Assembly (NCBI GenBank): GCA_964397255.1
Contig: CAYNHQ010000004.1
Span: 186,480 to 250,479, forward strand
DNA: 64,000 nucleotides
From: an uncultured bacterium
GTDB lineage: Bacteria > Bdellovibrionota_G > JALEGL01 > DATDPG01
Direction of reading: 5' to 3'
Shown here piece after piece: positions 391-55,720 of the stretch; position 1 is the stretch's first letter, and each line of letters starts with the position of its first letter. A program made the translations under genes and the position numbers. The notes below the pieces were generated by a model that was not told where the DNA came from, made no database searches, and was given only the letters and a program-made list of their open reading frames with translations.

Positions 391-467
391 GGCGGTGTAG
401 CTCAGTTGGTTAGAGCGAGGGTCTCATAAGCCCTAGGTCCGGGGTTCGATCCCCTGCGCCGCCACCA
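391..467 (+). tRNA. tRNA-Met (anticodon CAT), elongator type; tRNA-Ile2 (lysidine) cannot be excluded; CCA encoded
   Basis: Cloverleaf folded by hand. Acceptor GGCGGTG pairs CGCCGCC (G1:C72 is paired, so it is not an initiator), discriminator A73, CCA. D-arm GCTC-AGTTGGTTA-GAGC. Anticodon stem AGGGT/GCCCT with loop CTCATAA (CAT). T-arm CGGGG-TTCGATC-CCCTG. Confidence 0.85.
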
Positions 468-471
468 AATG
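452..471 (+). repeat. attL core: 20-bp sequence ccctgcgccgccaccaaatg at the tRNA 3' end, repeated exactly at 8353-8372
   Basis: Exact 20-bp direct repeat seen at both positions. Integrase gene lies immediately adjacent. Confidence 0.75.
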
Positions 472-565
472 CGTTCTAACTTCTCGTCATCAAAAAACTT
501 TTTCTTCAACGTAGGGTCAGTTGGGTAACTTTGGGTAACAGCTCGGGTTACTTTTACTTCGCTGC

Positions 566-1837
566 TTACGAATGTCGAACCAAAGAGATGACTTTGGCTC
601 CTTCCGGACTCGGAGGGTTCTCGGTCGGTTTATCTTTCCCCAACGCGAATTTTTCAATCGCGTTCCTTTGCGTTCTCTCTGCCACCTTCGCGTAATGCTG
701 CGTGACGGCGAGATCTCGGTGACCCATCGCTGCTTGCGCAGCCCGAATATCATTCGTCTGATCCGCATAAATTGAGGCGAATGTGTGACGCATGACATGC
801 GTTGACCTCACTGGAAGGCCCAGGGCCCGATACGCTTTCTTGTAGGCATTCTGGAGCGCCGGGTACTTGAGCATCTCCCCTTCTTTGTGAAAGACAAAGG
901 GGCCGTTCGTCCCTTTCAGTTTCCATTCGCTCAAGAGACGAACCAGACGTGACGGCATGACCACCTTTCGGAGGTCTCCCGTCTTGGTCCCCTCACGTAG
1001 GAACGGTTCCTTCGTTCGATACTGCCAGTAACAGACTCGCTTGATCTCCACGGCTGAATTCTGAAGATCGACGCAGTCCCACTGAAGACCGCACGATTCA
1101 CCGATCCGCGCGCCACAGAGCGCTTGGAACGACGCCAGGTAATAATAAACCGGCCGATGATGCGTGCGAAGACGTTCGAGAAATCTCTCTAAGTCCACCT
1201 CAGAAAGCGAAATGTCCGGCTTTCCCGGCTTCGCTTTAAAGAAAGCATCCCGTCGGTGTCGCTTGAGTATCGGAGGTTGAAACCTCGGATTCTTATACTC
1301 GCGATACCAGTTCAGTATCGTCATGAGCGTTTTTACCTCACGCAAGAACGACACGCGCGTTGCCTTCTTCGGGTAGGAAGGATCGATCATGTATTTCAAC
1401 CACCGATCGATATCTTCCGCCGAGAGATCCTCCACAGGAATTTCGAAGAGAGCTCCAAAATGAAAGATCTCCTTCGTTAAAGAATCCCACGTGCCTGGCG
1501 CGAATCTCGGCGGCTTTGACCACTCCCTCCAGTCCGCAACGAGGTTTTGTATTGTGTACGTGTTCTCTTTACGGATGGGAATCTCAGGATTGGATTCGGT
1601 TCTCCAGCCCCGAGCCTCATCGACCGTATGAAAAAGTCGGATCTGCTGGACGATTTTTCCCAGCATTTTCACCCGACGAACGGCGCGATAACTCTTCGCC
1701 TTACTTCCGACGACGGAGCGAAGATCGATGTAACGTTGTTTTTCCTCGCTCCAGACAGTGATCTTGAAGATCCCCGGATATCCCCGCACTTTGGTCAGAC
1801 GGCGTGTATCCCTCTTTCTGTTTTGATGATTATCCAT
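566..1837 (-). CDS. int: Tyrosine-type site-specific integrase (phage integrase family)
   Basis: C-terminal catalytic motifs ...ARIGESCGLQWDCVDL...HVMRHTFASIYA...GHRDLAVTQHYAKV (R, HxxR and Y signature). Adjacent to the tRNA attachment site. The first Met of the ORF may be upstream of the real start. Confidence 0.85.
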   Translation of the reverse strand: MDNHQNRKRDTRRLTKVRGYPGIFKITVWSEEKQRYIDLRSVVGSKAKSYRAVRRVKMLGKIVQQIRLFHTVDEARGWRTESNPEIPIRKENTYTIQNLVADWREWSKPPRFAPGTWDSLTKEIFHFGALFEIPVEDLSAEDIDRWLKYMIDPSYPKKATRVSFLREVKTLMTILNWYREYKNPRFQPPILKRHRRDAFFKAKPGKPDISLSEVDLERFLERLRTHHRPVYYYLASFQALCGARIGESCGLQWDCVDLQNSAVEIKRVCYWQYRTKEPFLREGTKTGDLRKVVMPSRLVRLLSEWKLKGTNGPFVFHKEGEMLKYPALQNAYKKAYRALGLPVRSTHVMRHTFASIYADQTNDIRAAQAAMGHRDLAVTQHYAKVAERTQRNAIEKFALGKDKPTENPPSPEGAKVISLVRHS

Positions 1838-2093
1838 ACTGCTGACTCCTCTCTGATAACCACCTGCGAATCACTTCGGAGCTGAAACGAACCATCCGCG
1901 GCGTAGGTCGGACCGTTGGGATCTTCCCCTGCCAGACTAAATTCCGAATGGTGCCTTTGCTGCATTGAAGGACTTCCGCCAATTCACTGACCGTAAGCAG
2001 TCGGCCTATTCCCTTTTCAAAGATCAAGCCCTCGCGAAGTTGAAATTTCCTCGGGCCGAATTGCGCGATCTTATCATCCTGCATGGGAAACAA
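1830..2093 (-). CDS. xis: AlpA/Xis-family excisionase-type helix-turn-helix DNA-binding protein
   Basis: 87 aa with MerR-like HTH LLTVSELAEVLQCSKGTIRNLVWQGKIPTVRP. Lies immediately upstream of int, overlapping it by 8 nt. This is the typical int-xis arrangement. Confidence 0.6.
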   Translation of the reverse strand: MFPMQDDKIAQFGPRKFQLREGLIFEKGIGRLLTVSELAEVLQCSKGTIRNLVWQGKIPTVRPTPRMVRFSSEVIRRWLSERSQQYG

Positions 2094-2114
2094 CCTTTCT
2101 TTTTCAAATCCTCA

Positions 2115-3488
2115 TCAGAAATCGATCTCCGGGCCGCTCTTTTTCTCGAGGCTCACGTCTCCGAAGAGCGTCAGCGTTTTTTCATTTTTTCGAACTGGTC
2201 GGCGAACCACTTCTGGTCTACGGGATTGAGATTGGGAATCACCTTCTCTTGAAACGTCCTCCAGAGAATCGCGTCCTGGTTCTCTTTCAGATAAAAACGC
2301 CAAATGGAACAGACGCTTACCGCCACCACCGCCATGGCGAGGTTCAGGAGAAAGAAGACCCCGATCGCTTTGAGCTTGATTCCGTTGTTGGCTTGTCGAA
2401 TATCCTCCAGAACGTCCTGCGCCCGTTCGCAGGAGGAGCGAAAGCTCTCGCCCGCCGATTGATAGGTTCGCTGTAGCTGCTGGCTTTCGACCTGCGATTT
2501 GTGGGTCATCTCCCTTAACGAATCGAGCAAGGGACAGATTTTTTTCTCGAAGTCGTTGGCCACGTTTTTGAAGCTCTCGTGAGAGATCTGGAGAAGGTAG
2601 GGCGGATCCTTTTCGGAACTGTTCGATGGCCTGGAAAAGTCTTGGGTCATCTCGGTTTTGGTCATAACTGATTCCTTTCTCTTGTTGTAAGCCGTGCCAC
2701 GTATAGGCTCGGCCGAGGTTACTTCCTTTCATCGATTCGCCGTCCAGACGAAAGCGAATTCCTGAAATGTGGCCGGTCTTGGCCTGGTACGGAGAGACAT
2801 CGACATGCTGGTCCTGAAGCCGTCCAATAAAATCACTCATCGTCGGCTTTCCCTGTGCCGCTTCGTCGATGATCTGTTGTAGTCGGAGCTTTGTACTTGG
2901 CTCGCCGGTCCGAAGAACCCTGTGCAACTCTCCGGAGGTCGGTGATCGTGAGAGCGATTCCCGGCTTGGCAGAACTCGGGTCAGTCCATGCTCCAATTCC
3001 AGGCTCCGAATGGTCGTTTCACTCCGGCGGTAGTCGTGACTTTCTGAAACGACTTTGCCGTCTATGCCGATTCGGTTTGCCACAATATGAATATGGTCGT
3101 GAGGCGTATCGGTGTGTCGGACGATCAGGAATTGCGATTTCTTAAATCCCATCCGGTCGAGATAGGTGTGCGCAACCTCGTTCCATTTCTGATCCGAAAG
3201 GCGCTCGCCGGGTGGTAACGAAAGGCTTGCGTGGTACACGGGCCTTTTCATGCTCGGTTTCAAATTCCGGACCGCTCCGAATTCGGCGATAAGGTCTTTC
3301 GGGGATCGACCGACCATGTTTCCGCCGATCTGCTGCGCACCCTCCTTCCCGAGAACATACTTAACGAGGCCGCCAAAACTCTTCCCTTTGGTCTGCTTAC
3401 CGATCACGCCAACCTCGATGCCAAAACGTTTAGCGCCAGGTTCTGAACGGCGGCGCTTATCTCTTCGAGCAGGCCGACGCCGACGCAA
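2115..3488 (-). CDS. mobA: Mobilization relaxase (MobA/MobL-type relaxase domain)
   Basis: Catalytic Tyr region GKSFGGLVKYVLGKEG and 3-His motif HTDTPHDHIHIVANRIG. The first ~28 codons of the ORF overlap the mobC 3' end, so the real start is probably near 3405-3420 (GTG or ATT). The C-terminal ~180 aa are low-complexity (R/S/G-rich) and overlap an alternative-frame ORF. Confidence 0.7.
   Translation of the reverse strand: MRRRRPARRDKRRRSEPGAKRFGIEVGVIGKQTKGKSFGGLVKYVLGKEGAQQIGGNMVGRSPKDLIAEFGAVRNLKPSMKRPVYHASLSLPPGERLSDQKWNEVAHTYLDRMGFKKSQFLIVRHTDTPHDHIHIVANRIGIDGKVVSESHDYRRSETTIRSLELEHGLTRVLPSRESLSRSPTSGELHRVLRTGEPSTKLRLQQIIDEAAQGKPTMSDFIGRLQDQHVDVSPYQAKTGHISGIRFRLDGESMKGSNLGRAYTWHGLQQEKGISYDQNRDDPRLFQAIEQFRKGSALPSPDLSRELQKRGQRLREKNLSLARFVKGDDPQIAGRKPAATANLSIGGRELSLLLRTGAGRSGGYSTSQQRNQAQSDRGLLSPEPRHGGGGGKRLFHLAFLSEREPGRDSLEDVSREGDSQSQSRRPEVVRRPVRKNEKTLTLFGDVSLEKKSGPEIDF
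2171..2665 (-). CDS. Hypothetical membrane protein encoded out of frame inside the relaxase gene (mobB-like nested ORF)
   Basis: 164 aa with balanced composition and a clear TM helix AIGVFFLLNLAMAVVAVSVCSIW. It lies entirely within the 3' third of the relaxase ORF in another frame. Confidence 0.3.
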   Translation of the reverse strand: MTKTEMTQDFSRPSNSSEKDPPYLLQISHESFKNVANDFEKKICPLLDSLREMTHKSQVESQQLQRTYQSAGESFRSSCERAQDVLEDIRQANNGIKLKAIGVFFLLNLAMAVVAVSVCSIWRFYLKENQDAILWRTFQEKVIPNLNPVDQKWFADQFEKMKKR

Positions 3489-3829
3489 CTCGCCTGCCCG
3501 GAATGAATGGCCTTTGTCAGCTGGTTGAGGTTGTTCCCGACGCGAGCAAGCTCTTGATACGCGGATCTATTGATCTCGGGTGCGGGAAGAGGCGGAAGTC
3601 TACGCTTCAATACCGCCCGCCGGACGTATTCGCTCAGGCTTAGGTGGAAAGCTCGAGCGCTCATTCCGATCTCTTTTCGTTCTTCCGGCGTGAACCGAAT
3701 GGGAACGACGCGAGTCCTCCCGCGAACGGAGTGAGTGGGACCGCAAATCGACGTAGTCGGTTTGCATGGCTCGCTACTCACTTCTTCCCACATTCTTTCC
3801 CCCTGCTTCTCTTCCCATTTCTTTTTCAT
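3404..3829 (-). CDS. mobC: Relaxosome accessory protein MobC (ribbon-helix-helix mobilization protein)
   Basis: VVPIRFTPEERKEIGMSARAFHLSLSEYVRRAVL...YQELARVGNNLNQLTKAIHSGQ matches the MobC signature (RxTxEE...SxSEYIR...GNNLNQ). Start taken at the internal ATG at 3827-3829 (MKKKWEE). The upstream part of the 276-aa ORF overlaps a plus-strand gene and is judged non-coding. Confidence 0.7.
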   Translation of the reverse strand: MKKKWEEKQGERMWEEVSSEPCKPTTSICGPTHSVRGRTRVVPIRFTPEERKEIGMSARAFHLSLSEYVRRAVLKRRLPPLPAPEINRSAYQELARVGNNLNQLTKAIHSGQASCVGVGLLEEISAAVQNLALNVLASRLA

Positions 3830-3926
3830 CTTTTTGTCTTTTCTCTCTACGCATCTGTGATATAACACATTTGAGGTACACCGTGTCAACGCATAGTTAC
3901 GTGATAAAATATAACGTTTTAAGCCT

Positions 3927-4760
3927 ATGAATGTATTCAAAAATTCCGGGCAGCCTCCGGAGCCAGGTGTCGCCCAGGCGGAGAAGCCTCGATCGAACTT
4001 GGTCGGAATGAATGTACGGCTGGAGCCATCCCTCAAAAAGGCGATCGAGGCAGTAACTTGGGAATCCGGAGTCTCCCCAGGCGGGCTCATTCGAAGGCTC
4101 TCGTTCCAGGACATCACGAGAAATGTTGCGAACCGATGGAAGGCCCCGGAGTGGATCAAAGAGGAGCCACGTGCAGCGAACCTGAATTTTCTTGTGCTTG
4201 CCCGACATTCGGAAGCGATTCGACTTCGAGCCAAGGAACTAAATTTAAGCCTGACCGACTACATTCGCTCGCTCGCCATTTTCCAGGTTTTTGAAGCTGA
4301 AAAAGTGTTCAAAGAAAAGGGTCAAAAATTAACAATCTTGGACGAAACCTCAAGACACTATTGGCCAACCCTCGAAGCAAAATCGAAAAAGAGTTGGCTA
4401 TCGAAATGGACAAAAAGCAAGAGAGACCCAGACCTTCAAGACCAATTTCTACGCGACGTCGAGGGCGTTGACATCGCCGCCGGATACACCACGTACAAAG
4501 GCAAGAAGATCATCGAGCTTGTGAAAGGCGAGGCAGAAAAAGAGGGCTTAAGTCTTGCGGCCTATCAAAAGAAGCTCGTGTATGAAGACCTGGAACGAAA
4601 ATATGGGATGAAATTTGTGGCAGAAATTCTCGACGAACCGTTTGAGCAATGGGAGATGTATGATGATTTTATAAAGCGTGTGATCGATGATACCGGAAAG
4701 GTGAATATGGAATTCCTGAAACTCAAATCCTCGGCAAAATCGCCGCATACGAAGAAGTGA
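3927..4760 (+). CDS. Hypothetical protein with two N-terminal ribbon-helix-helix (CopG/MetJ-like) motifs
   Basis: MNVRLEPSLKKAIEAV... and FLVLARHSEAIRLRAKELNLSLTDYIRSLAI resemble RHH beta-strand plus helix units. The K/E-rich C-terminal ~150 aa is of unknown function. 16-nt gap to the next gene on the same strand. Confidence 0.5.
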   Translation: MNVFKNSGQPPEPGVAQAEKPRSNLVGMNVRLEPSLKKAIEAVTWESGVSPGGLIRRLSFQDITRNVANRWKAPEWIKEEPRAANLNFLVLARHSEAIRLRAKELNLSLTDYIRSLAIFQVFEAEKVFKEKGQKLTILDETSRHYWPTLEAKSKKSWLSKWTKSKRDPDLQDQFLRDVEGVDIAAGYTTYKGKKIIELVKGEAEKEGLSLAAYQKKLVYEDLERKYGMKFVAEILDEPFEQWEMYDDFIKRVIDDTGKVNMEFLKLKSSAKSPHTKK

Positions 4761-4776
4761 TGGAGATCAAAACTCA

Positions 4777-6243
4777 GTGACTCTGAATGAACTACGCCGC
4801 CTTGTCCGTGAAGGCGAAGGCCCCGGACTGGAGTTCAAACGAACGACGGGAGAGCTGAGCCGCGGTTTAGAAACGATATGTGCTTTTTTGAATACGGAAG
4901 GTGGACAGGTTTTGTTCGGCGTCGGCCCCAAGGGGACGATCGAAGGGCAGCAAGTCTCATCCCAAACCCTGCATGAAATCACCCAGGCATTCAGCCGATT
5001 CGAACCGCCGGCGGTGATCAAGATTGAACGGGTCAAGATCGGAAAAGGGCGCGAAATACTTGTTCTAAACCCGAAAATCGATTCGGAGTCGCTGCCGTTC
5101 ACGTTTGATGGTCGCCCCTATGAACGAGTCGGAAACACGACTCGGAAGATGCCGCAGCACCGATATGAGTCCCTTCTTTTTGAACGGGCTCACGCCACGC
5201 GGCGATGGGAGAATCAACCCGCCGAGGGCGTGCGTCTCAAAGACCTCGATCACGAGGAAATTTTAGCAACAAGGGAAGCCGCCATTGCGCAACGGCGGAT
5301 CTCCGCAGGAACCAGCCGGGATATCGGAGACATCCTCGACCGACTCGGCCTTCGCGTCGATGGAAAGATCACGCAGGCAGCGCAAGTTCTCTATGGGACG
5401 AAGTTCTTGCCTTACTATGCCCAGTGCCTTCTAAAAATGGGAAGGTTTCGGGGAACAAAAATCACAGGGGAAATCGTCGACAACAAGCAAGAACATTTGC
5501 ACGCTTTCGCGGTCGTACGGGAGGGGATGGCATTTTTAGACCGAACGCTTCCGCTCGGCGCGCGTTTCCCCGAGGGAAAGATTTTCCGGGAAGACCGCCT
5601 TCCGATTCCTCCGAATGCGCTCCGAGAAATCCTTCTCAATGCGGTGATGCATCGGGATTATTCCGATTATGGTGGACACATTGCGATCGCGATTTTCGAT
5701 GACCGCGTCGAAATCAGGAGTGCAGGAAAGCTTCCGGCCGGCGTGACCGTAGATCAACTATCAGGTCCTCACCTTTCAAAACTCCGTAACCTTCTCATCG
5801 CTGGAACGTTTCACCGGACCGGGGCGGTCGAAATCTGGGGTCGCGGCACAGACCGAGTCGTGGACGAGTGCAAACAGCATGGAATCGATCCCCCGATTTT
5901 TGAGGAACGACAAGGGTTCCTGATTGTAACGTTTCGGGCGCAGGTCGTCGTTACCTCGCGACAGCTAGAGTCACAGCCAGAGTCACAGCTAGAGTCGCGG
6001 CCAGAGTCGCTCGATAGACGGGTTTTAATTTTCCTCGAGAACGGTCCTTTGGGAAAAGCGGAAATTGCGGCGCGTATGAGCCAAAAGAAAGTCTCTGGCC
6101 AGCTCAACAAGGTGATTCGGGAACTCGTGAGCGAAGGCCTAATCGTGTATACGATTCCTGAAAAGCCAAACAGCCGGTTGCAGCGATATCAGATAACCAA
6201 AGTAGGCAAAAAACTCTTGGAGAAGAACGGTGAAAGCGAATAG
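4777..6243 (+). CDS. Schlafen-like AlbA_2 (putative DNA-binding) + HATPase_c_4 (RecG C-terminal-like ATPase) + C-terminal winged-HTH protein
   Basis: N-terminus LEFKRTTGELSRGLETICAFLNTEGGQVLFGV (AlbA_2-like). Central LREILLNAVMHRDYSDYGGHIAIAIFDDRVEIRSAGKLP (HATPase_c-like). C-terminus DRRVLIFLENGPLGKAEIAARMS... (wHTH). Family assignment made from memory of motifs. Confidence 0.65.
   Translation: MTLNELRRLVREGEGPGLEFKRTTGELSRGLETICAFLNTEGGQVLFGVGPKGTIEGQQVSSQTLHEITQAFSRFEPPAVIKIERVKIGKGREILVLNPKIDSESLPFTFDGRPYERVGNTTRKMPQHRYESLLFERAHATRRWENQPAEGVRLKDLDHEEILATREAAIAQRRISAGTSRDIGDILDRLGLRVDGKITQAAQVLYGTKFLPYYAQCLLKMGRFRGTKITGEIVDNKQEHLHAFAVVREGMAFLDRTLPLGARFPEGKIFREDRLPIPPNALREILLNAVMHRDYSDYGGHIAIAIFDDRVEIRSAGKLPAGVTVDQLSGPHLSKLRNLLIAGTFHRTGAVEIWGRGTDRVVDECKQHGIDPPIFEERQGFLIVTFRAQVVVTSRQLESQPESQLESRPESLDRRVLIFLENGPLGKAEIAARMSQKKVSGQLNKVIRELVSEGLIVYTIPEKPNSRLQRYQITKVGKKLLEKNGESE
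5961..6008 (+). repeat. In-frame 12-bp tandem repeat x4 (acagctagagtc / acagccagagtc / acagctagagtc / gcggccagagtc) encoding QLES-QPES-QLES-RPES
   Basis: Seen directly in the sequence. Lies between the ATPase core and the C-terminal wHTH of the 4777-6243 gene. Confidence 0.9.
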
Positions 6244-6495
6244 GCGACTGAATTACGGCGCGGAATAGCGACCGTTTTGCAATGCCTCTCCTTTACACCT
6301 GGCCACCGGCCGCTGAAGTCTCCCCATTGATCCGCGACAGTTTCGCAGAGACATTCACTCCGCAGCCCTCGCCCTCAAAGAAAAAATATTAATGATATTA
6401 ATTGCTTATATCTGAAATCCATTCTCTATAAATGGCCTATTGAATGCATGGAAATAGTGTGACAATATGCGTCAATTTTTCGAACGAGGTGTGAG

Positions 6496-7299
6496 ATGAG
6501 AACGAAGTGGATGGCAATAACGATGGCTGCTCTGGCGACCGCGTCGGCGCAAGCGGCTTCTGAAAAATCCGATCGGATTTGTGGGTTTCCCGGCGAAGCG
6601 GGTCACAATATTGAGCAGAGAATTGCGGATTGCAAAGTGGCCTACCCATCCGATTCAACACGGAAGTCCGACACGTCGAACGCAACCATCTCGTTGGTGA
6701 CTCGCTTGATTTCAAACAGTGGAAAGTCGGAAGATGTTTGGAAAGAGATGCCTAGCGGCCTTCTATGGTCGGATATCATTAAGCGAGTGACTGATCCCCC
6801 GAGCGACAAAGCACCTGATTCATCGGAGAAGCCCAAAACTACTTATTCATGGAATGAACTCATAGAGTGGGCAAAGTTGAAAACGGAGCCAGGTTCGTTG
6901 GAGTTTTTGGATGACGTAGAAACATATAGATGGGTCGAGAGGAAATATTCTGGAGGCAAATCCGTAAAATTTGATGACCCCGCTGGGAAAACCGTTTGCC
7001 AACTCGCGACTGAGAAGTTGGCCGCAATGGGGGGGCTTAAAGATGTTCATTGGCATCTTCCGACAGCTGACGAGCTAGCCCACATCGGAAGGGTGGATCA
7101 GAGCCGTTACAACGAATACGAAAAGAAAAATATCACAGGGAATGGGCTTTTTGCGAAACTTCCGAACATGGCCGATCATTGGTTTTGGTCCTCGTCGCCT
7201 GCCGGTGGCGTCAACGCGTGGGGGCTCAGCGGGAGCTTCGGCGATGTCGTCAGCGACGACCGCGACTACGACGGCGCCGTACGTTGCTTGGGCCGCTAG
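6496..7299 (+). CDS. Secreted DUF1566 (Lcl C-terminal domain-like) protein with signal peptide
   Basis: Signal peptide MRTKWMAITMAALATASAQA. C-terminal motifs VHWHLPTADEL...FWSSSPAGGVNAWGLSGSFGDV resemble DUF1566. AT-rich promoter region upstream. Confidence 0.5.
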   Translation: MRTKWMAITMAALATASAQAASEKSDRICGFPGEAGHNIEQRIADCKVAYPSDSTRKSDTSNATISLVTRLISNSGKSEDVWKEMPSGLLWSDIIKRVTDPPSDKAPDSSEKPKTTYSWNELIEWAKLKTEPGSLEFLDDVETYRWVERKYSGGKSVKFDDPAGKTVCQLATEKLAAMGGLKDVHWHLPTADELAHIGRVDQSRYNEYEKKNITGNGLFAKLPNMADHWFWSSSPAGGVNAWGLSGSFGDVVSDDRDYDGAVRCLGR

Positions 7300-7322
7300 G
7301 CGTGGGAAGGGTCAGCTTAGAA

Positions 7323-7366
7323 GGGGACTATCAGTCCGTGATGGATTGATAGTCCCCTTTGATTTT
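7323..7366 (+). terminator. Rho-independent terminator after the DUF1566 gene
   Basis: Perfect 11-bp inverted repeat ggggactatca / tgatagtcccc (loop 13 nt) followed by tttgatttt. Confidence 0.7.
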
Positions 7367-7496
7367 CACCCGTTTTCGATGGATCGAAATCTCTTCGGGA
7401 ATCGCACGGAACTCGGTGGTCCAATCGACCAGCCGATCGAGGGATTCTTTCCGAAGTCGATAGCTTTGGGCATGAATCAGATAGCCGAGGCAGGAA

Positions 7497-8078
7497 TTGA
7501 GTTTTGCCAGGCGGCTCTCAGTTATTTTCGGCCAGCTGGGAAACGCGAGCGCCTGGGTACCCGGCAACATCACGGATAATGTGTACGCCGAAATCTTATT
7601 CCTACGCGAGCTGGAGAAAAAGGAGACTGCGCCCACTGGCAGCGCAACAGTTGCTGAAAAAGTTAAAGGACCCAAGAACATTCAAGAGGCTATTGCCAAT
7701 TCTATTCGATTCCTAACGCGAGAATTAAGCGGACATGTGAAACTCTTGAGCCAGCACAATCAGCCCAAGGAGCTCTATAAAGAGATGGCAATTGAACAAT
7801 CCGGGTATGGGATGATCTGTCCTTTAGGAGATGTTGGCCAATGTCTCCTCTTACCAAAGGCCATAAAGGACGTTCTTCCGATTCAGATGCAGCATCTCAC
7901 GCCCGAAGTGGAAAAGTTTGTAAAGGCCACTACCGGGAAACTCATATATTACGACCCCGCACTCTTCGCCCAACGGGTCAGAGAAGCGAACGAGAAACAT
8001 CAGCGTGAGATCATTCGCGAAGGTCAATTCGCCGCCGAAGCGCAACAAAAAGCAGTCGATCGGCAATTGAAGTGGTAG
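7497..8078 (+). CDS. Hypothetical protein (island cargo); true start uncertain
   Basis: 193-aa ORF with protein-like composition from ~VYAEILFLRELEKKE onward. No recognisable domain. Overlaps a probably spurious minus-strand ORF. Confidence 0.35.
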   Translation: MSFARRLSVIFGQLGNASAWVPGNITDNVYAEILFLRELEKKETAPTGSATVAEKVKGPKNIQEAIANSIRFLTRELSGHVKLLSQHNQPKELYKEMAIEQSGYGMICPLGDVGQCLLLPKAIKDVLPIQMQHLTPEVEKFVKATTGKLIYYDPALFAQRVREANEKHQREIIREGQFAAEAQQKAVDRQLKW

Positions 8079-8352
8079 CCCGACTTCATTTGGATCATTA
8101 AGAAGAACAATTGACCAGCGGGCTAGTCGATAGCGAGGTTAACTTGCCCATACTTCGTCTTTTTGGGATTCACACGAGGGATACCATTTGGTTCGCGGTA
8201 ACCCTTTCCCGTGTCTTGGGTAATTTTGGGTAACAGGCCGACTGATACGGAGTGAAATGGGTGCTACTCAGTGATACTGCAGGTTTTGTTATCTGCTTGA
8301 TGTTATTGTTTTTGCCTTACGATCCGAACCGTTGCGCGCCCGCCCCTGCAGG

Positions 8353-8372
8353 CCCTGCGCCGCCACCAAATG
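8353..8372 (+). repeat. attR core: second copy of the 20-bp tRNA 3'-end sequence
   Basis: Exact match to 452-471. Confidence 0.75.
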
Positions 8373-8375
8373 ATT

Positions 8376-8439: not shown

Positions 8440-10032
8440 ATGTCGACCGAAATCCAGTCCGTAGGGAACCTCTCAGACACCCCCCTCCTTCAATTATTTC
8501 GATGGGTTACCGAGAACCACTATAGCGGGGTCATGATTCTTGCCCACGACGAAGTGAAGAAATCGATCATTTTTGAAAAGGGCCAGATCATCTCCGCTCG
8601 TTCCAACATTATGTCGGAGTGTCTTGGGCAGCTCCTGCTCGCTCAAGGGAAGATTACTCAAGCTCAGCTCACTCAATCGCTGACCAAAACCGATGCACAG
8701 GAATCCATGCGACATGGAGAGGTGTTGATTGCGATGGGACTAATCGACCATGCCCTTCTAAATGATTTTCTTCGAAGACAAGTGGAAGTACGAATCGAAG
8801 AAATTTTTTCCTGGAAAGAAGGGAAATACGGCTTTGTTGAGAAAATTCCGGAGGATGCGGCCCGCGTAAAAATCGAAGGCACACTTCTTGAGATCGCTCT
8901 TAGGGGTCTAATTCGGCGATATTTGAAACAAGAAGATACGAAAGCGCTGAGTCTTGATTTAAAGCCAATTTCGATTGGAGGACATGGTATTGAAATTGAG
9001 CAACTGAAATTAGTGGGTCGAGAGATGAGTCTGTTGAGAGCTGTTTCTGGTGTGTCGACAATGAAAGATATTATTACGAAGTCACGAATGGATGAGCCCA
9101 TGGCACGCGCAATGTTTCTGGCATTTCGCGACTTCGGAATGATTCGAATCGGCGACACCGCTCCGCAAACTTCTCCCAGCACCCGATCTACCCCTCCGCC
9201 CCCACGCGAATCTTCAAAGCCGGCCCCTGCGCCATCATCTGCCACCGCATCGAAGCCGAGTACTCCGGCTCCGCAGACCCCGGCCACCAAAGGATTTAAC
9301 CCGGAGGAAATAGCCGATCGACTGGCCGCCGCGCAAACGCAAACCCTTTTCGATCTCTTAGGGGTTCCGCGACAGGCGACAACCGACGATATCAAGAAAG
9401 CCTATTTCGATCTTGCCAGGAAGTACCACCCCGATCGCTTGCCACCGAACATGTCCCCCGAAGATCGAAAAAATGCGGAAGCTCTATTTGCTCGAATTAC
9501 CGAAGCACAGACCAGGCTTACCAATCCTTCTTCGCGAAAAGAATATGAGGCCTCACTTGAATTGGAGGCGAGCGGGGTCGGGTCGGGACAAGTGAATGCG
9601 GTCCTGGAATCGGAGGCGGAGTTCCAGAAAGGGACGGCTCTTTTGCGGAAGGGGGATTTCAAAGGAGCTATGGAGGCTTATCAAAAAGCAATATCGCTTT
9701 ACGAAAAAGAACCCGAATATTTTTCACAGCTGGGTTGGGCGATGTTTCGTCAGTCGGCGAAGACGAAAAATGCCGCGGAACATGCGAAAGCAAAACGGGC
9801 GGTGGAGACGTCGATCAAGATGAATCCGAATTTGGCGCAATCGTATTACTACCTGGGCATGATCACGAAGACCGACGGCGATCTCGAAATGGCCAAGAAA
9901 CTGTTCAATAAAGCGGTAGAAATGAATCCAAAAAATGCGGAAGCGACTTCCGAACTCCGACTCATCAATTCGCGTCTGGAGAAGGAACATAAGGGAGGAC
10001 TTAAAGGGCTCTTTAAGAAAAAGGAAGCATGA
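8440..10032 (+). CDS. DUF4388-like N-terminal domain / J-domain (DnaJ) / TPR-repeat protein
   Basis: J-domain YFDLARKYHPDRLP (HPD motif). Pro/Ser-rich linker. C-terminal TPR-like repeats (AMEAYQKAISLYEKEPEYFSQLGWA..., AQSYYYLGMITKTDGDLEMAKKLFNKAVEMNP). N-terminus resembles the DUF4388/PATAN fold (from memory). Confidence 0.65.
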   Translation: MSTEIQSVGNLSDTPLLQLFRWVTENHYSGVMILAHDEVKKSIIFEKGQIISARSNIMSECLGQLLLAQGKITQAQLTQSLTKTDAQESMRHGEVLIAMGLIDHALLNDFLRRQVEVRIEEIFSWKEGKYGFVEKIPEDAARVKIEGTLLEIALRGLIRRYLKQEDTKALSLDLKPISIGGHGIEIEQLKLVGREMSLLRAVSGVSTMKDIITKSRMDEPMARAMFLAFRDFGMIRIGDTAPQTSPSTRSTPPPPRESSKPAPAPSSATASKPSTPAPQTPATKGFNPEEIADRLAAAQTQTLFDLLGVPRQATTDDIKKAYFDLARKYHPDRLPPNMSPEDRKNAEALFARITEAQTRLTNPSSRKEYEASLELEASGVGSGQVNAVLESEAEFQKGTALLRKGDFKGAMEAYQKAISLYEKEPEYFSQLGWAMFRQSAKTKNAAEHAKAKRAVETSIKMNPNLAQSYYYLGMITKTDGDLEMAKKLFNKAVEMNPKNAEATSELRLINSRLEKEHKGGLKGLFKKKEA

Positions 10033-10517: not shown

Positions 10518-11782
10518 GCGTGAATCACCGGACGGCGCCGCTGGAGGTTCGCGAGCGGCTCGATTTTTCGAAATATCCGCGCGAGGATTATCTTTCAAAA
10601 CTGGCCGGACAAAGCTCCGTCCGTTCCGGAATGGTTCTTTCGACGTGTAATCGCGTGGAAGTCTACGCCATGGGGAACAACGCCGAACGACTCCTGACGG
10701 ATGCAGACGAATTTCTTCGTATCTTTCATGGTCTAAGAAAAGGCGAAATTGAATCTTTTCTTTACAGCAAATCCAACATGGATGCCGTACGGCATCTCTT
10801 CCGAGTGGCCGCGAGCCTGGATTCGATGATTGTGGGCGAACCTCAAATCCTGGGCCAAGTGAAAGAAGCCTATTTTGCTTCCAGTGCCGCCTCTTTGGTG
10901 GATCCTATTTTTGATCGGCTTCTTCGGAAGACCTTTTCAGTGGCGAAGCGAGTTCGCAATGAAACCAATATCGCAGAACAGGCCGTGTCGATTAGTTACG
11001 CGGCCGTGGAGTTGGCTACCCACATATTTGGAAGGCTTGAAGGGAAGAAGGTGATGATTTTAGGGGGCGGGGAGATGGCTGAACTCGCTGCCCGTCATTT
11101 TTCAAAAGAAAACGTGGGCAAAATATACTTTGCAAACCGGACCTACGAATCGTCGGTCGAGCTTGCGAAAGAATTTAATGGGATCCCCATTCCGATCGAT
11201 CAATTTTCAAAAGACATTTTTGAAGTGGATATTCTTCTCGTTTCCACGGCCGCTCCTCACTATATGGTTCACGTAGGAGAAGTCGCCCGGGCGCTGGAAA
11301 TGCGGAAACAGGAACCAATGTTTTTCATCGATATCTCCGTGCCCCGGAATGTGGATCCGGCCATTAACGCCCTCGAAAATGTTTATTTGTACAATATTGA
11401 TGACCTTCAAAATGTAGTGGCCAACCATAAGGAAGCTCGCGCCCAGGAAGCGGAAAAGGCGGAAGCAATTATCGAACTGGAGATCAAACGTTTCTATGAG
11501 GCGATAGAGAGAATGAAAGTAGGCCCGATGATCGAGTCGCTGCAGGAAAAAGCCGAAACCGCCCGGCAAATGGAACTCTCCCGGCTTTCGAAACGACTTA
11601 AAAATGTGACGGCGGAGGAGATGGCCGAAATAGAGCGCGCGACCGAGTCCCTCGTTCGAAAAATTCTTCACGACCCGATCCAATTTTTGAAAGAAGACCC
11701 CAACGAAATGTCGCAGGCCGAGCGGACGGTCCTTTTTCAATCGATTTTCGGTCTTCGAAAAGAAAGCGAAGGGGAAGAGTGA
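10499..11782 (+). CDS. hemA: Glutamyl-tRNA reductase
   Basis: MDLVVLGVNHRTAPLEVRERL...LSTCNRVEVYA... with NAD-binding MILGGGEMAELAARHF. Start moved to the internal ATG at 10499; the track ORF from 10325 carries an implausible N-terminal extension overlapping hemX. Confidence 0.9.
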   Translation: MDLVVLGVNHRTAPLEVRERLDFSKYPREDYLSKLAGQSSVRSGMVLSTCNRVEVYAMGNNAERLLTDADEFLRIFHGLRKGEIESFLYSKSNMDAVRHLFRVAASLDSMIVGEPQILGQVKEAYFASSAASLVDPIFDRLLRKTFSVAKRVRNETNIAEQAVSISYAAVELATHIFGRLEGKKVMILGGGEMAELAARHFSKENVGKIYFANRTYESSVELAKEFNGIPIPIDQFSKDIFEVDILLVSTAAPHYMVHVGEVARALEMRKQEPMFFIDISVPRNVDPAINALENVYLYNIDDLQNVVANHKEARAQEAEKAEAIIELEIKRFYEAIERMKVGPMIESLQEKAETARQMELSRLSKRLKNVTAEEMAEIERATESLVRKILHDPIQFLKEDPNEMSQAERTVLFQSIFGLRKESEGEE

Positions 11783-12708
11783 AGCTCCGTGTGGGAACGC
11801 GGGGAAGCTCTCTCGCTCTCGCGCAAAGCAAGCTTCTTCAGACGCAACTGGCCCAACAAAATCCGAATCTGAAATTCGAAACGAAAGTCATAAAAACCAC
11901 CGGCGATGAAGCAATTAATCGCCCATTTTCCGCCATCGGCGGGCGCGGAGTGTTTACGCGTGAACTGGACGAGGCGCTCTCCAAGAATGAAATTGATTTT
12001 GCGGTTCATAGTTTGAAGGATCTCACGTCCGAATTTATTCCGGGGGTGATGTTGGGCGCGGTCACCGCTCCAGCGGATCCTCGCGATGTCGTGGTCTCCC
12101 GTAGCGGGCAGCCTCTGGGTGAACTTTCGAAAGGCGCTGTGGTTGGAACCGCAAGCCTGCGGCGCACGGCGCTTCTCAAATCCAAATATCCTCATCTCAA
12201 GATCGAAATGCTCCGAGGCAATATCGATACGCGTCTTCGTAAAGTGGCGGAGGGAACCTACGACGCGATCGTGATCGCGGCGGCGGGGCTCATTCGTCTC
12301 GGCTGGGAATCCAAAATCACCGAGTTTCTCGATCCCAAAGAATTTGTCCCCGCGATTGGACAGGGAAGACTGGCTTTGACCTGCCGAACGTCGGACATGG
12401 CTACCCGTCGAGTGATTGAGACGGTCGATGATTCCGCGAGCCATCGCCTCGCCCGAATGGAGCGAATCTTGATGCAAAGGCTCGAGGGAGGATGTCTCGT
12501 CCCCATCGGTTGTTACGGGGAAGAGAGGGAGGGAAGGGTGATCCTCTATGGGTATCTTGGAATGCCGGATGGGAAAAGGGAGATTCGCCGGACCGTCGAA
12601 GGACGGGTAACCGACGCCGAAAAACTGGCGGAAGATTTGGCAGCTCAGATGCTCCAGGGTGGCGGCAAAGAAATGCTGGAGGAACTTCGCCCGGGAGTGA
12701 CGAAATGA
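11779..12708 (+). CDS. hemC: Porphobilinogen deaminase (hydroxymethylbilane synthase)
   Basis: MKLRVGTRGSSLALAQS...FAVHSLKD... dipyrromethane cofactor region. ATGA overlap with hemA. Confidence 0.9.
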   Translation: MKLRVGTRGSSLALAQSKLLQTQLAQQNPNLKFETKVIKTTGDEAINRPFSAIGGRGVFTRELDEALSKNEIDFAVHSLKDLTSEFIPGVMLGAVTAPADPRDVVVSRSGQPLGELSKGAVVGTASLRRTALLKSKYPHLKIEMLRGNIDTRLRKVAEGTYDAIVIAAAGLIRLGWESKITEFLDPKEFVPAIGQGRLALTCRTSDMATRRVIETVDDSASHRLARMERILMQRLEGGCLVPIGCYGEEREGRVILYGYLGMPDGKREIRRTVEGRVTDAEKLAEDLAAQMLQGGGKEMLEELRPGVTK

Positions 12709-51167: not shown

Positions 51168-52058
51168 TCAAAATCCCCCCGTCATTTTGAGGGCGATGGG
51201 GACGAAGAGAAGGATAAAGACGACTGGAAAAATACATATAATGAGGGGGGCGAGCATTTTCACGGGGGCTTTTTGAGCGAGAGCTTCGGCTTGGCTGAAG
51301 ATTTCGCGGCGCAGAGTTTCCGATTGAAGGCGAAGTAGGCTTCCTAAGCTCGATCCAAGCTGCTCCGATTGAGCGATACTGGAAGCCCAGAGGGACATGG
51401 CCTCGACCCCGGTTCGATTCGCCATATCCTGGAAAGCTACGGAACGAAGCGTTCCCATTCGAATCGATTTCAATGTGATGAGAAGCTCTTCCCGCAACGG
51501 ATTGTTTTGATCTCGCCCTACCACCTCTTCAATTGCTACGATCAAATCGAGACCAGCTTCGAGGGCGAGGGTGATGAGATCCAGGTAATAAGGGAAGCAC
51601 AGCACAATCGCCCGTTGCCGTTTTCGGATCTGACTATTGAGAGTTTGAGCCGGGAGAAAATAGCCTGCGGTGGCAAACAGGATCGCTAGGAAAGGAGTAT
51701 CGAGTACGGACCAAAAAACCAACCCGAGGATACTTCCCCCCACGCTCAACAGAATTTGTTTCGCTAGAAAATGTGGCGCTTCTCCAGCCGGTCTTCCAGC
51801 CCGCTCCAATTTCTTCGCGAGTCCAGCGAATATTGTGGGTGAAACGCGGCCGGTCAGCCACTGGCTGAAATCCGCCGATAATCGAGTGCTTCCCTGTTTT
51901 GGGTTTTTGAAAAGTTGGGGGTTGACTCCCGCAGGAACCCATTTCGCCAATCGTGTGCGGTATCCCCAAATGAGATATCCGAGCGCCGAACCCCAACAAC
52001 CAATAGCCAATAATTCCATCATCGGATGAGCTCCATTTTGCTGATCTTGTAAACCCAT
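51168..52058 (-). CDS. tadC: Tad/type II secretion system F-family inner membrane protein TadC
   Basis: T2SSF-like: ...LITLKSIRMGTLRSVAFQDMANRTGVEAMS... with 3 TM segments. Confidence 0.7.
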   Translation of the reverse strand: MGLQDQQNGAHPMMELLAIGCWGSALGYLIWGYRTRLAKWVPAGVNPQLFKNPKQGSTRLSADFSQWLTGRVSPTIFAGLAKKLERAGRPAGEAPHFLAKQILLSVGGSILGLVFWSVLDTPFLAILFATAGYFLPAQTLNSQIRKRQRAIVLCFPYYLDLITLALEAGLDLIVAIEEVVGRDQNNPLREELLITLKSIRMGTLRSVAFQDMANRTGVEAMSLWASSIAQSEQLGSSLGSLLRLQSETLRREIFSQAEALAQKAPVKMLAPLIICIFPVVFILLFVPIALKMTGGF

Positions 52059-52957
52059 GTTCCGCCGACGCTGAGAAGAACGATCGATACGGCGATCGCC
52101 AAGTGTCCCGCCGATGTTCGGAAAAGTGGGGAAAGATAGTCGGGTGCCAAAAAATTCATTCCAACCGTCAGTAAAATCGGCATAGCGATCGCTACCATCG
52201 CCTGCACTTTCCCCTGCGCCGTTAAAGCCGTGAGGCGGTCTCGAAGCGCAGCTCGCGCCCGGATCATCTCCGCTACGCGATCAAAAGCTTCGGAAAGGTT
52301 CGATCCGACACGCCGAGAAATCGAAACGGCGCTCGAGACCAGCTCCAGATCACGGCTCGGATAGCGAAGGCAGAGATTCTTCATCGCCTCTTCCATTGTG
52401 GTTCCCAGACGCAGCTCCTTTGCGACGATCTGGAATTCCTGAGAAAGTGGAGCAGGCTGCGTTCGAATCAGTGATTCAATCGCGCGATCAAATGTATGCC
52501 CCGCATGAAGAATGGCCGAGAGCTGAGGCAGGACCAAACCAAATTGCTTCTGAAAAAGTGTCTGGCGGCGGTTTCGAATATGCCGTAAAAGTAAAATCGG
52601 TATTCCGATCGCAAGGAGGAGCGAGCCAAAGAAGGGCCATGGCGAAAGGGTAACAAACGAGACGAGGCCACCAACGGCAGCCATACATAACAAGCTTTTT
52701 CTTAGCGCCGTCGGATTTACAAAGAGAAATTGTTCTGAGAGCCCGTATCGAACATTTTCTTCCCATTCATTCTCCACCACCAAAAGCTTGGTTTGATAGC
52801 GGCTCACCAGGTTCGTGGCGATCCAAAAAAGAGATGCCGCGATAAAGAGAGCGCTAAGCCAAAGCACGGAGTTCTCCAAGGTTGAGGATATCCACAAAAC
52901 GCTGGCGTTCCTGAGACGAAAGCTGGTCGGCGAATCGGGGAAGACGTCCGGTGGCAT
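52019..52957 (-). CDS. tadB: Tad/type II secretion system F-family inner membrane protein TadB
   Basis: T2SSF-like. Probable GTG start near 52863-52866 (VLWLSALF...), giving a short overlap with cpaF. The track start at 52957 overlaps cpaF by 104 nt. Confidence 0.7.
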
Positions 52958-54140
52958 GAAGCCCTTCCACGCCGGGGCGTCGAAGAAAGAGATCCTGCGA
53001 TTGAATCGTTCCGTCCTCGGTTCCGCAAATTTCCGTCACATGCGTCACTTTTCGAGTTCCATCGGAGCATCGAGCCTGAAAGACGATGAGGTCGATCGCA
53101 CTGGCGATCTGTTCGCGAATCGCGCGCAGCGGGAGATCGAAACCTGCCATCATCACCATGGTCTCCAGGCGAAGAAGGGCATCGCGCGGAGAGTTCGCAT
53201 GAGCGGTAGTGAGCGAACCATCATGGCCAGTGTTCATGGCTTGAAGCATGTCGAGAGCTTCGCCCCCACGGCATTCGCCCACGACAATCCGATCGGGGCG
53301 CATGCGGAGGGCATTGCGGACAAGGTCACGGATGGAGACCTCTCCACGACCTTCAACATTTGCCGGGCGAGCTTCCAGCGAAACCACATGAGGTTGCGGA
53401 AGTTTCAATTCGGCGGCGTCCTCTACCGTCAAAATTCGTTCATGACTTGGGATGAATCCTGAAAGAGCGTTGAGAAGAGTCGTTTTTCCCGAACCGGTTC
53501 CTCCTGCGATCAAAACATTCTTTCGAATACGAACGGCATCATTAAGAAAAAAGGCGGCTTGTTTGGTGAGCGAACCGAATTCAATGAGCCGTTCGACGGA
53601 AATGGGGGTCTTTGAGAATTTTCGAATGGTGATCGTAGGTCCATTTAGCGCGAGCGGCGGAATAATGGCATTCACCCGTGAACCATCGGCCAGACGTGCA
53701 TCGACCATAGGAGAAGACTCATCGATTCGACGGCCCAGAGGAGTGACGATTCGATCGATGATCGTCCGGAGAGATGCATCGCTCGAAAACGTCGCCAGAG
53801 TCTGCTGAATCTTTCCTTTTTGTTCGATAAAGATTCGATCTTTGCCGTTTACCATGATTTCCGTAACGGTCGGATCGCGAAGCAGCTTTTCCAAGGGTCC
53901 GAGTCCGACGGCTTCGTCGACAATGTCGGAAACCAATTCGTCGTCTACGGAGAGACGACCCTGGGCATCGATTTTGTCGAGACATTGTTTGACCAGCGCT
54001 TCGACTTTGGCACGCAATTCGGGACCTCGAAGCTGAGCGTAGTCGGTCTTTCGAAGATCGATGATCTCCAGAAGGTTGTTTAAGAGAAACTCCTTCGATC
54101 GATTCCGAACATTTTGTGAAAGGGTGGTGTTCATGATCAA
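52854..54140 (-). CDS. cpaF: Tad/Flp pilus assembly ATPase CpaF/TadA
   Basis: Walker [18 protein letters not shown]; secretion ATPase Asp/His boxes. Confidence 0.85.
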
Positions 54141-55540
54141 TCCAGAATCGAGAGTTTGAGTTCCTTATCAAACCGCTTGGAGTGCTCATCCGCTTTCTTA
54201 AGCGTCTGTCGTGCGACCGTACTGGTTGCATCTCCAGAGAATGGGGTAAGGAAGATGACGAACTCAGATTCATTTTTCTGAAAGGATCGGCTTTTGAATA
54301 GCTCACCCAAAATCGGCACGTGTCCGAGGAAGGGAACTTTCTCCACATTCTTGCGGGATCGATCTTCAATTAAACCTCCCAGGACGATCGTGTCGCCCAA
54401 GCGGAGATTTGCCGCAGTTTTGACTCGATGTTCGAGGATGCCGGGAATGTTGTCGATCGCCGTAGAGGAATCGAGATCGGAAATTTTGCTTTCAATTTCA
54501 AGATAGACTCTTCGCGACTGGTCGATCTTTGCCTTGATTTCGAGTTTTACACCGTACTCTTTGAAGATGACGTCCGCTGTGCGTTCCCCCACGACTCGAA
54601 TCGGGATTTCGCCCCCTGCGAGGAAGGATGCGGGCGTTCCGTTCCGACAGAGAAGCTTGGGGTTGGAAAGAACCTTGGCAAGCCCTTTGGCGACCATGGC
54701 TTTGAGGTTCAGGGTGGGTTTTTCGCCCCCGATATTGATGATTCCCGACCAACCGGCCCCGCCGCCGAAACTAGCTGAAGCGTCACTTGAAATGCTGTTC
54801 GGCCAATCGAGACCCACGTCACCGAGAGAATTTTTTCGGATCTCCATCATCTTCACATCCACCAAGATCAAAGGCTCGGCGGACACGCCGACGGAAATGG
54901 AATTGGAAACTTTGGAATAAATGGATTTCGCGAGATTCTCCGCGCGTGCGATATCGCCTTTGCGCGATACTTCTCCTTCCAGAAAAATCGTGTCGACTTC
55001 GCTCCGGACGGTTACTTGCTCAAGACCCGCCTTTTCAAGCCGCTCGGCGATCTGATGCCCCATGTATTCCAGCGCCTGAGGATTTACACGTGTATTGTCC
55101 TTCACATTGGAATAATTCTTCGTAATTTTCGCGATCTTTTCGAGATCTTCGCCTCGGAACACCTGTCCTTCGAGTGTTAAATTTCCTCCTGTTCTTCGAA
55201 GCGAGACCCCTTCCATTCCATCGAGCATTGCCCGCACTTCCTGTTCGATATTTCTTCCTTTCGTATTCACTTCGATGAGATAGGATTTTTTCGATCCATC
55301 TCGAAACCAAAGGATGAGATCCGTAGTGCCTCGTTTAGCGCCGGTCACAATGACTTGTTGAGCATCGGGGAGGGCCTTCACGTCCGCCACATCGGGGTCA
55401 CCGATGGCCGCGCGCTTTACTCCGGGGGATGAAATCACATGTTGACGGCCGGGAGCGATTGTGATCGTTTCCGCCGCCTTCGCCGATGTGATGCATAAGA
55501 GACTCAAAAGAATTTGAAATATTTTTTTCGCGTTTTTCAT
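54137..55540 (-). CDS. cpaC: Secretin CpaC/RcpA (type II/III secretion secretin family)
   Basis: Signal peptide, BON-like N-domain, C-terminal secretin motif [30 protein letters not shown]. Confidence 0.8.
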
Positions 55541-55720
55541 ACCCCCTGCTATGGCAATCGAAGTGCCAACGCGCGAAAACGCGCAACTGCTTGATATAAA
55601 AGGAATAAAATCTCAGACTCTTCGGCATGACTGGACGAAAGAAAGTCAACAGAGATCGATTTTCGGACGGAAGAAAATCTCTCTTGGGTCATACCGTTTT
55701 CCAGCTAGAATCGCGGTTCC

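Follow-up and report, generated by a model that had tools for sequence, protein, structure and literature searches.

A 7.9-kb element lies between two copies of a tRNA-Met 3′ end

We analysed a 64-kb stretch of DNA (hereafter the window, meaning the whole 64,000 nucleotides) from an uncultured Bdellovibrionota-like bacterium, in which a candidate integrative and mobilizable element (IME) adjoins a tRNA gene. The single tRNA that ARAGORN finds in the whole window is a tRNA-Met(CAT) gene at 391–467 on the forward strand, complete, with its CCA encoded, and matched over its full length by Rfam RF00005 (68.4 bits). It could be either an elongator tRNA-Met or a lysidine-modified tRNA-Ile2; initiator identity is disfavoured by the G1:C72 pairing, which can be read directly from the gene. 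The final 16 nt of the tRNA, including CCA, together with the AATG that follows make up a 20-bp sequence, CCCTGCGCCGCCACCAAATG, at 452–471, and this sequence recurs exactly at 8353–8372, likewise on the forward strand. Both the complete tRNA and the exact repeat of 16 tRNA nucleotides plus four of flank had been pointed out in an initial annotation of this DNA, and ARAGORN, Rfam and sequence searches bear them out. The 7.9 kb bounded by these two copies (472–8352) hold genes for a tyrosine integrase, an excisionase-type protein, a relaxase and its partner, two further DNA-binding proteins and variable cargo, and the chromosome restarts at 8373. Canonical IMEs encode their own integration/excision module and their own relaxase, and lack a type IV secretion system (T4SS) (PMC5704250).

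The two copies are the only exact occurrences of CCCTGCGCCGCCACCAAATG in the window, and no third appears with up to three mismatches allowed. Chance would supply 0.03 such repeats per window, and two copies were seen in 0/100 shuffles. Because the flanks of both copies diverge immediately on either side, the exact repeat is 20 bp long; no other long-range direct repeat in the first 12 kb is as prominent. The initial annotation had allowed that the 20-mer might turn out to be a frequent genomic word. It is instead rare, both in the window and in metagenomes, where 241 million records yielded nine matches, all in unrelated contexts: chance occurrences in unrelated sequence and one unrelated tRNA. 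The repeats thus bound the element, with the left copy forming the 3′ end of a tRNA that is scored as complete, and we refer to them as the attL (452–471) and attR (8353–8372) cores.

The element encodes a putative integration module and has putative arm-type motifs inside both ends

The gene nearest the tRNA encodes a tyrosine integrase of 423 amino acids (566–1837, reverse strand), transcribed toward the tRNA and matching PF00589 (E=1.9e-21) and the phrog_1 integrase family (E=5e-49). The full set of catalytic residues (R244, K285, H347, R350, H373 and Y382) is present and invariant in an alignment of 23 sequences of the family, and the N-terminal 210 amino acids match no arm-binding or SAM-like domain of Pfam. 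Overlapping the start of the integrase gene by 8 nt is a gene for an 84-residue excisionase-type helix-turn-helix (HTH) protein (1830–2084, reverse strand, from ATG 2084), a candidate recombination directionality factor (RDF) that matches PF12728 HTH_17 (E=3.6e-13) and the TIGR01764 excisionase domain (40.4 bits against a cut-off of 28.8). The same arrangement, xis upstream of int, is kept in three of the related contigs described below (L035, L038 and L042). Judged by these matches, the element would carry its own integration and excision functions, as expected of an IME.

Just inside attL, at 521–552 on the forward strand, lie two tandem 10-bp units, TTGGGTAACT and TTGGGTAACAG, followed by an inverted half-site, GGGTTAC. 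The 21-bp motif formed by the tandem units, TTGGGTAAYTTTGGGTAACAG, has a chance expectation of 0 and occurs in the 64 kb only at 521–541 and 8216–8236, in the same orientation, 50 bp inside attL and 117 bp inside attR. Inverted GGTAACC half-sites adjoin each copy, and an inverted GGTAACCC is found at about 8198–8206. The distal copy falls within a non-coding stretch (8169–8318, forward strand) with 70% nucleotide identity to positions 2046–1895 of L035, which occupy the equivalent position just inside the far repeat of that element. Such tandem motifs at both ends are the layout expected of arm-type integrase-binding sites of an attP, and we regard them as putative sites of this kind.

Related integrases sit at tRNA and tmRNA 3′ ends

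We found 27 relatives of the integrase, at 45–64% identity, among 5.8 billion proteins; the next match is at 30%. All of them come from Bdellovibrionota-type assemblies or metagenomes. In six of the seven relative contigs that we fetched, the integrase gene abuts the 3′ end of an identified tRNA or tmRNA gene and is convergent with it, as in the window, and in the seventh (L038) the contig ends inside an apparent tRNA 3′ end.

The targets differ among the relatives. An integrase at 62% identity (L035/L036/L037) lies at tRNA-Leu(TAG), where the first 15 nt of the tRNA end recur at a distance of 10.1 kb (we estimate the chance of this at about 0.004); one at 54% (L039) is at tRNA-Leu(TAG) on a contig too short to show a repeat; and one at 50% (L040) is at tRNA-Ser(TGA), with 17-bp repeats 8.3 kb away, AbiEii-type cargo and no relaxase. 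Two further integrases, each at 59%, are found at a tmRNA gene together with an FtsK-like gene (L042) and at the tRNA cut by the contig end together with a Replic_Relax gene (L038); members of the clade also occur alongside transfer modules of other kinds. The remaining relative, at 61% (L046/L044/L045), shares the window's target: its tRNA-Met(CAT) is identical at 73/77 positions, and three cores, CTGCGCCGCCAC, delimit two elements in tandem, about 4.9 kb and 6.4 kb long. Homologous integrases are likewise located at tRNA and tmRNA 3′ ends with matching direct repeats.

Homologous tandem arm motifs ending in AACAG are present at the equivalent position in L035, L039, L040 and L042. They occur at both ends in L035 (TGTTGACCCGGTGTTGACCCAA) and L040 (TGTCCCGCA), and at the integrase end, the sole end within the contig, in L039 (TTGCGGAACTTTGCGGAACAG) and L042 (TTGGGTAACGTTGGGTAACAG). 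The element of L035/L036 at tRNA-Leu(TAG) is a sister in gene content as well. It has in common with the window a backbone of six genes in the same order (int, xis, relaxase, NikA-like, second ribbon-helix-helix [RHH] protein, AlbA_2/HATPase_c_4 protein), at 34–62% identity, and its distal genes differ.

Several of these loci have features of their own. The tandem array belongs to a related Bdellovibrionota population (L044/L045, GCA_035292885.1, DATDPG010000203.1, forward strand at about 120, 6478 and 11371; L046 at 3065–3139). One of the two elements encodes a full-length integrase, Xis and a toxin-antitoxin pair (Gp49/HTH_37); the other has a truncated integrase of 296 amino acids, a NikA-like gene and an insertion sequence (DDE_3). 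The final 13 nt of L044 (reverse-complement positions 1–14) read TGTGCTGGGCGTGC before the core, unlike the tRNA T-arm of L045/L046. Considered as an attP, this contig end matches no other att flank and was set aside; it may be an assembly-end artefact, as we take it to be, or an alternative junction. In L035, a Y1 transposase gene (IS200/RAYT-like, 11416–11862) flanked by GC-rich hairpins of the CCCGGGCTTACGCCCGGGG type (at about 11400 and about 11915) separates the integrase arm sites from the tRNA-Leu core, and its insertion may have disabled attL there. On the far side of the L040 island the tRNA-Ser 3′ end is repeated twice, at 3055–3071 and 3177–3193, 122 bp apart, which suggests an att site left by an earlier element. 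The window's integrase itself is found, identical, in Logan run SRR12313479 (L001), and the L039 integrase (54%, tRNA-Leu(TAG)) in the neighbouring run accession SRR12313480 and also on an NCBI contig of 294 kb. A single organism or community may thus harbour two elements of this integrase family.

A divergent mobilization module without transfer machinery

Beyond xis, the reverse strand encodes a relaxase of 430 amino acids (2115–3407, from GTG 3407) that matches PF03432 over the whole model (1–132/132, E=1.7e-36). Its translation contains an N-terminal tyrosine (GGLVKYVLGK) and a histidine triad, HTDTPHDHIHIVANR. It shares 59% identity with the relaxase of L035; the plasmid relaxases closest to it, at 44–49% identity, are typed MOBP by MOB-suite. 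Since its score against the NCBIfam TraI_MobP_relax model (83 bits) is below the equivalog cut-off of 250, we call it divergent; domain, motifs and nearest relatives together indicate a MOBP-like enzyme. The start of the relaxase gene overlaps the stop of the gene upstream by 4 nt (GTGA). This upstream gene (3404–3829, reverse strand) encodes a NikA/MobC-like RHH relaxosome accessory protein of 141 amino acids (PF21983 NikA-like, E=1.2e-16; PF05713 MobC, E=4.6e-7), 50% identical to its L035 homologue, with a start at ATG 3829 assigned from conservation. The int, xis, mobA and mobC genes named in the initial annotation are thus recovered by Pfam and NCBIfam matches, with the starts of xis, the relaxase and the mobC-like gene refined to the codons given here.

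Between the mobC-like gene and the divergently transcribed gene that follows are 97 bp (3830–3926) in which both strands show promoter-like hexamers; the pair TTGACA...TTATAT is conserved between the window and L035, and a promoter scan places a promoter-like site on the forward strand at 3883–3910. Promoter and terminator scans gave counts that were not above those of shuffled sequence. By position, the origin of transfer (oriT) would be best placed in or near 3830–3926. A lone CATCCTGC at 2075 was considered as a nic motif and rejected: it has no counterpart in L035 and overlaps the start codon of xis.

Scans with family libraries found no gene for a T4SS, VirB4, VirD4 or other coupling protein, or mating-pair formation (MPF), either within the element or elsewhere in the 64-kb window, in agreement with the earlier description of a relaxase and MobC unaccompanied by a T4SS. 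Every open reading frame (ORF) of the element is accounted for without MPF genes, and transfer would accordingly depend on a helper. Outside the element, the only secretion-type genes of the window belong to a Tad/Flp pilus locus or encode PilT-like ATPases. The pilus locus, at 51168–57848, has two T2SSF TadB/C-like genes, a CpaF-like ATPase and a secretin with a BON domain, and two PilT-like T2SSE ATPases follow the Tad/Flp genes; it is chromosomal and unrelated to conjugation.

Further backbone genes and variable cargo

Two more genes belong to the conserved backbone. The divergently transcribed one (3927–4760, forward strand, with an alternative start, Met28, at 4008) encodes a second RHH-type DNA-binding protein with a weak NikA-like match (PF21983, E=7e-7) and a RelB-like domain; its L035 homologue, in the same position, is 37% identical over 235 amino acids. 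The next (4777–6243, forward strand) encodes a protein with AlbA_2 (Schlafen-type), HATPase_c_4 and C-terminal winged-helix domains (PF04326, PF13749, PF21247; phrog_12156, E=6e-50), 34% identical to its L035 counterpart over 500 amino acids and putatively a regulator or a DNA-binding ATPase. Both proteins probably serve as regulators or in maintenance. Within the second gene, four tandem 12-nt units (ACAGCTAGAGTC, 5961–6008) encode a repetitive QLESQPES linker ahead of the winged-helix domain.

The initial annotation had assigned about 4.5 kb to cargo. The region is present, but only about 2.1 kb of it is variable, because the two genes just described are conserved as backbone and the distal genes differ in L035. 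The first cargo gene (6496–7299, forward strand), absent from L035, encodes a predicted secreted Lcl_C/DUF1566 protein (PF07603, 35.0 bits against a cut-off of 34.9) whose signal-like N-terminus was read from the translation. Just past its stop, a hairpin at 7321–7359 with 17-bp arms and a 5-nt loop is followed by a T-rich run and probably terminates transcription between the two cargo genes; ORFs that overlap it (7142–7579, forward; 7331–7681, reverse) have no family support. The second cargo gene is a putative ORF of 193 amino acids (7497–8078, forward strand) with no match in Pfam, NCBIfam, PADLOC or PHROG. A defence-system scan of the cargo returned marginal matches only.

The right boundary coincides with the start of conserved chromosomal synteny

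The first chromosomal gene after attR (8440–10032) encodes a DUF4388(PatA_N)-DnaJ-TPR protein whose position upstream of the ccsA-hem cluster is kept in Bdellovibrionota-type genomes. Its best match in GTDB is 33% identical and its best named homologue, from a Bdellovibrionota metagenome-assembled genome, 49%. It also has a weak MshE-like motif for binding cyclic di-GMP (34.1 bits, below the cut-off of 38). This gene opens a block that continues with CcsA, HemA, HemC, HemD, HemB, DUF1015, YrdC and PurD, and the same block is found in the same order in three Bdellovibrionota-type lineages, as orthologues of 43–49% identity, where the genes of the island are absent. As the block opens at the first gene past attR, the right boundary of the element coincides with the start of conserved synteny. 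The left flank of L046 was tried as a comparison for the left side of the window and is non-homologous.

An integrative and mobilizable element is the most probable reading

Taken together, we consider it probable that 472–8352 is a site-specific IME inserted in the 3′ end of tRNA-Met(CAT). The reading of an att-bounded integrative element, already offered by the initial annotation, gains from the arm motifs, the tRNA-adjacent homologous integrases and the onset of synteny directly after attR. In the mechanism that we propose, the integrase would bind both the core and the tandem arm-type repeats close to each end and, with the HTH_17 excisionase, recombine attL with attR, releasing a 7.9-kb circle that carries attP and leaving an intact tRNA gene. 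The predicted attP junction is ...CCCCTGCAGG-CCCTGCGCCGCCACCAAATG-CGTTCTAACTTC... (in longer form GCGCGCCCGCCCCTGCAGG-CCCTGCGCCGCCACCAAATG-CGTTCTAACTTCTCGTCATC) and the predicted attB junction ...GGTTCGATC-CCCTGCGCCGCCACCAAATG-ATTTCCGAATAC... (in longer form GGTCCGGGGTTCGATC-CCCTGCGCCGCCACCAAATG-ATTTCCGAATACGGTATTCGG), so that an empty site should show the tRNA followed directly by ATTTCCGAATACGG. The MOBP-like relaxase and its NikA/MobC-like RHH partner would then nick an oriT, probably upstream of the mob operon, and a co-resident conjugative element would supply the coupling protein and T4SS through which the strand would be exported. In the recipient, the integrase would insert the circle at the same tRNA end, the 20-bp copy brought by the element rebuilding the gene.

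A number of results weigh against this reading. A scan of GTDB, in which the relatives reach at most 33% identity, gave no empty attB, and a scan of the 241 million metagenome records with CCCTGCGCCGCCACCAAATG gave no attB, attP, or host or element contig; we attribute the lack of an empty site or circular junction to the absence of close host relatives from the collections. In the three syntenic lineages the hem block is preceded by thioredoxin and rodA and by no tRNA, and since there is no tRNA at that position these relatives do not represent a true empty site. No helper conjugative system is visible within the 64-kb window, and searches for the MOBP/MOBQ nic consensus and for shared k-mers in the regions upstream of mobC in the window, L035 and cyanobacterial plasmids yielded no conserved motif that would mark an oriT. 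Nor did the comparison of composition inside and outside the element, which the initial annotation had put forward as a check, reveal any contrast: GC is 0.516 in the element against 0.513 in the host, GC3 (GC at third codon positions) is similar, and in tetranucleotide use 7/48 host segments are at least as distant as the element. Host-like composition fits an element that circulates within its lineage, without being positive evidence for it. One further candidate for a junction, the Logan contig L001 (window 470–2259), is suggestive in that it begins 2 nt into the core, but it is too short to interpret as such.

The same failures to find attB, attP and oriT, and the same host-like composition, are what one would see if a once-mobile island had entered site-specifically and then become fixed, having lost excision or transfer, for instance for want of a helper or a functional oriT. 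Decay is indeed documented in relatives, in the truncated 296-residue integrase of L044/L045 and the Y1 transposase between arm sites and core in L035. We nevertheless regard fixation as unlikely here: the two 20-bp cores are identical, the backbone ORFs are all full-length with intact catalytic residues, the arm motifs are kept at both ends, and host-like composition is equally expected from circulation within the lineage that holds all of the integrase's relatives.

The presence of MOBP relaxases with MobC-like partners on conjugative MPF_T plasmids raises the thought that the element descends from an integrative and conjugative element (ICE) whose T4SS genes were deleted. Against this, the L035/L036 sister, with proteins only about 60% identical, has the same compact six-gene backbone, also without a T4SS, and Pfam and PHROG scans detected no MPF pseudogene fragments. 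As the T4SS-less layout is conserved in the sister, no recent deletion has taken place, and we hold an ICE remnant to be very improbable. Most improbable of all is that the repeat is coincidental or that the locus is the remnant of a prophage or satellite. The integrase and excisionase do match phage families as well, but there is no capsid, terminase, replication or other phage gene, the PHROG matches being confined to the integrase, the excisionase and the AlbA_2 protein, and a scan of IMG/VR with the integrase alignment gave no relative above 29% identity. Coincidence, for its part, is countered by the low chance expectation given above and by the agreement of the repeat with a tRNA 3′ end and with the arm motifs.

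The element resembles known IMEs in architecture

The best-matching models among described IMEs are NBU1 and NBU2 of Bacteroides, small elements with MobP relaxases that target the 3′ ends of tRNA-Leu and tRNA-Ser, respectively (PMC5704250). Each uses a single tyrosine integrase and an RDF, preserves the target gene by a short direct repeat, has its own oriT and is mobilized in trans by a helper ICE (PMC5704250). The window element is like them in its insertion at a tRNA 3′ end, its MobP-type relaxase and its lack of a T4SS, and the best NCBIfam match of its relaxase is the Bacteroides MobB subfamily (NF041325). That match, however, scores 97 bits against a cut-off of 400 and covers only the N-terminal approximately 105 amino acids; because the score is so far under the cut-off, we see the element as a functional analogue and not as a member of the NBU1/NBU2 lineage. 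It differs from them also in its Bdellovibrionota-like host, its target, tRNA-Met(CAT), and a backbone with a separate NikA/MobC-like RHH gene, a second RHH gene and an AlbA_2/HATPase_c_4 gene, and it would need a helper of a type other than MPF_B.

The closest annotated relaxases are those of cyanobacterial MOBP plasmids (for example Nostoc pNPM2, NZ_CP026684.1), at 44–49% identity over the N-terminal 270–320 amino acids. These plasmids have the same pair of mobC followed by relaxase, with overlapping stop and start codons. Their modules differ in residing on large plasmids, mostly with an MPF_T system of their own, in lacking integrase and att sites, and in a relaxase whose C-terminal third is unrelated. 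In the organization of its ends the element recalls P4-like and lambda-like islands at tRNA and tmRNA genes, in which the core is the tRNA 3′ end, int adjoins the tRNA, arm repeats lie inside both ends and related integrases have been retargeted among tRNA and tmRNA genes; unlike those, the integrase clade of the window is small and has so far been met in Bdellovibrionota-type assemblies only.

Implications

Since its architecture follows that of textbook IMEs like NBU1 and NBU2, the element challenges no concept. What it adds is a cleanly delimited IME, along with a small family of tRNA- and tmRNA-targeting islands, in a phylum with an almost undescribed mobilome; a full-text search of the literature returned no paper mentioning both Bdellovibrio and integrative and mobilizable elements. 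With the exact core and the arm motifs in hand, PCR or read mapping could test the predicted attP and attB junctions directly, and the integrase and its att sites could possibly serve as a tool for site-specific integration in Bdellovibrionota. We also propose, tentatively and with slightly more doubt than confidence, that these elements constitute a previously undescribed, Bdellovibrionota-restricted IME family, with a six-gene backbone and an integrase clade repeatedly retargeted among tRNA-Met, tRNA-Leu, tRNA-Ser and tmRNA, the arm repeats differing between elements. If that proposal is true, the family would offer a first way of approaching conjugative gene flow among predatory bacteria.

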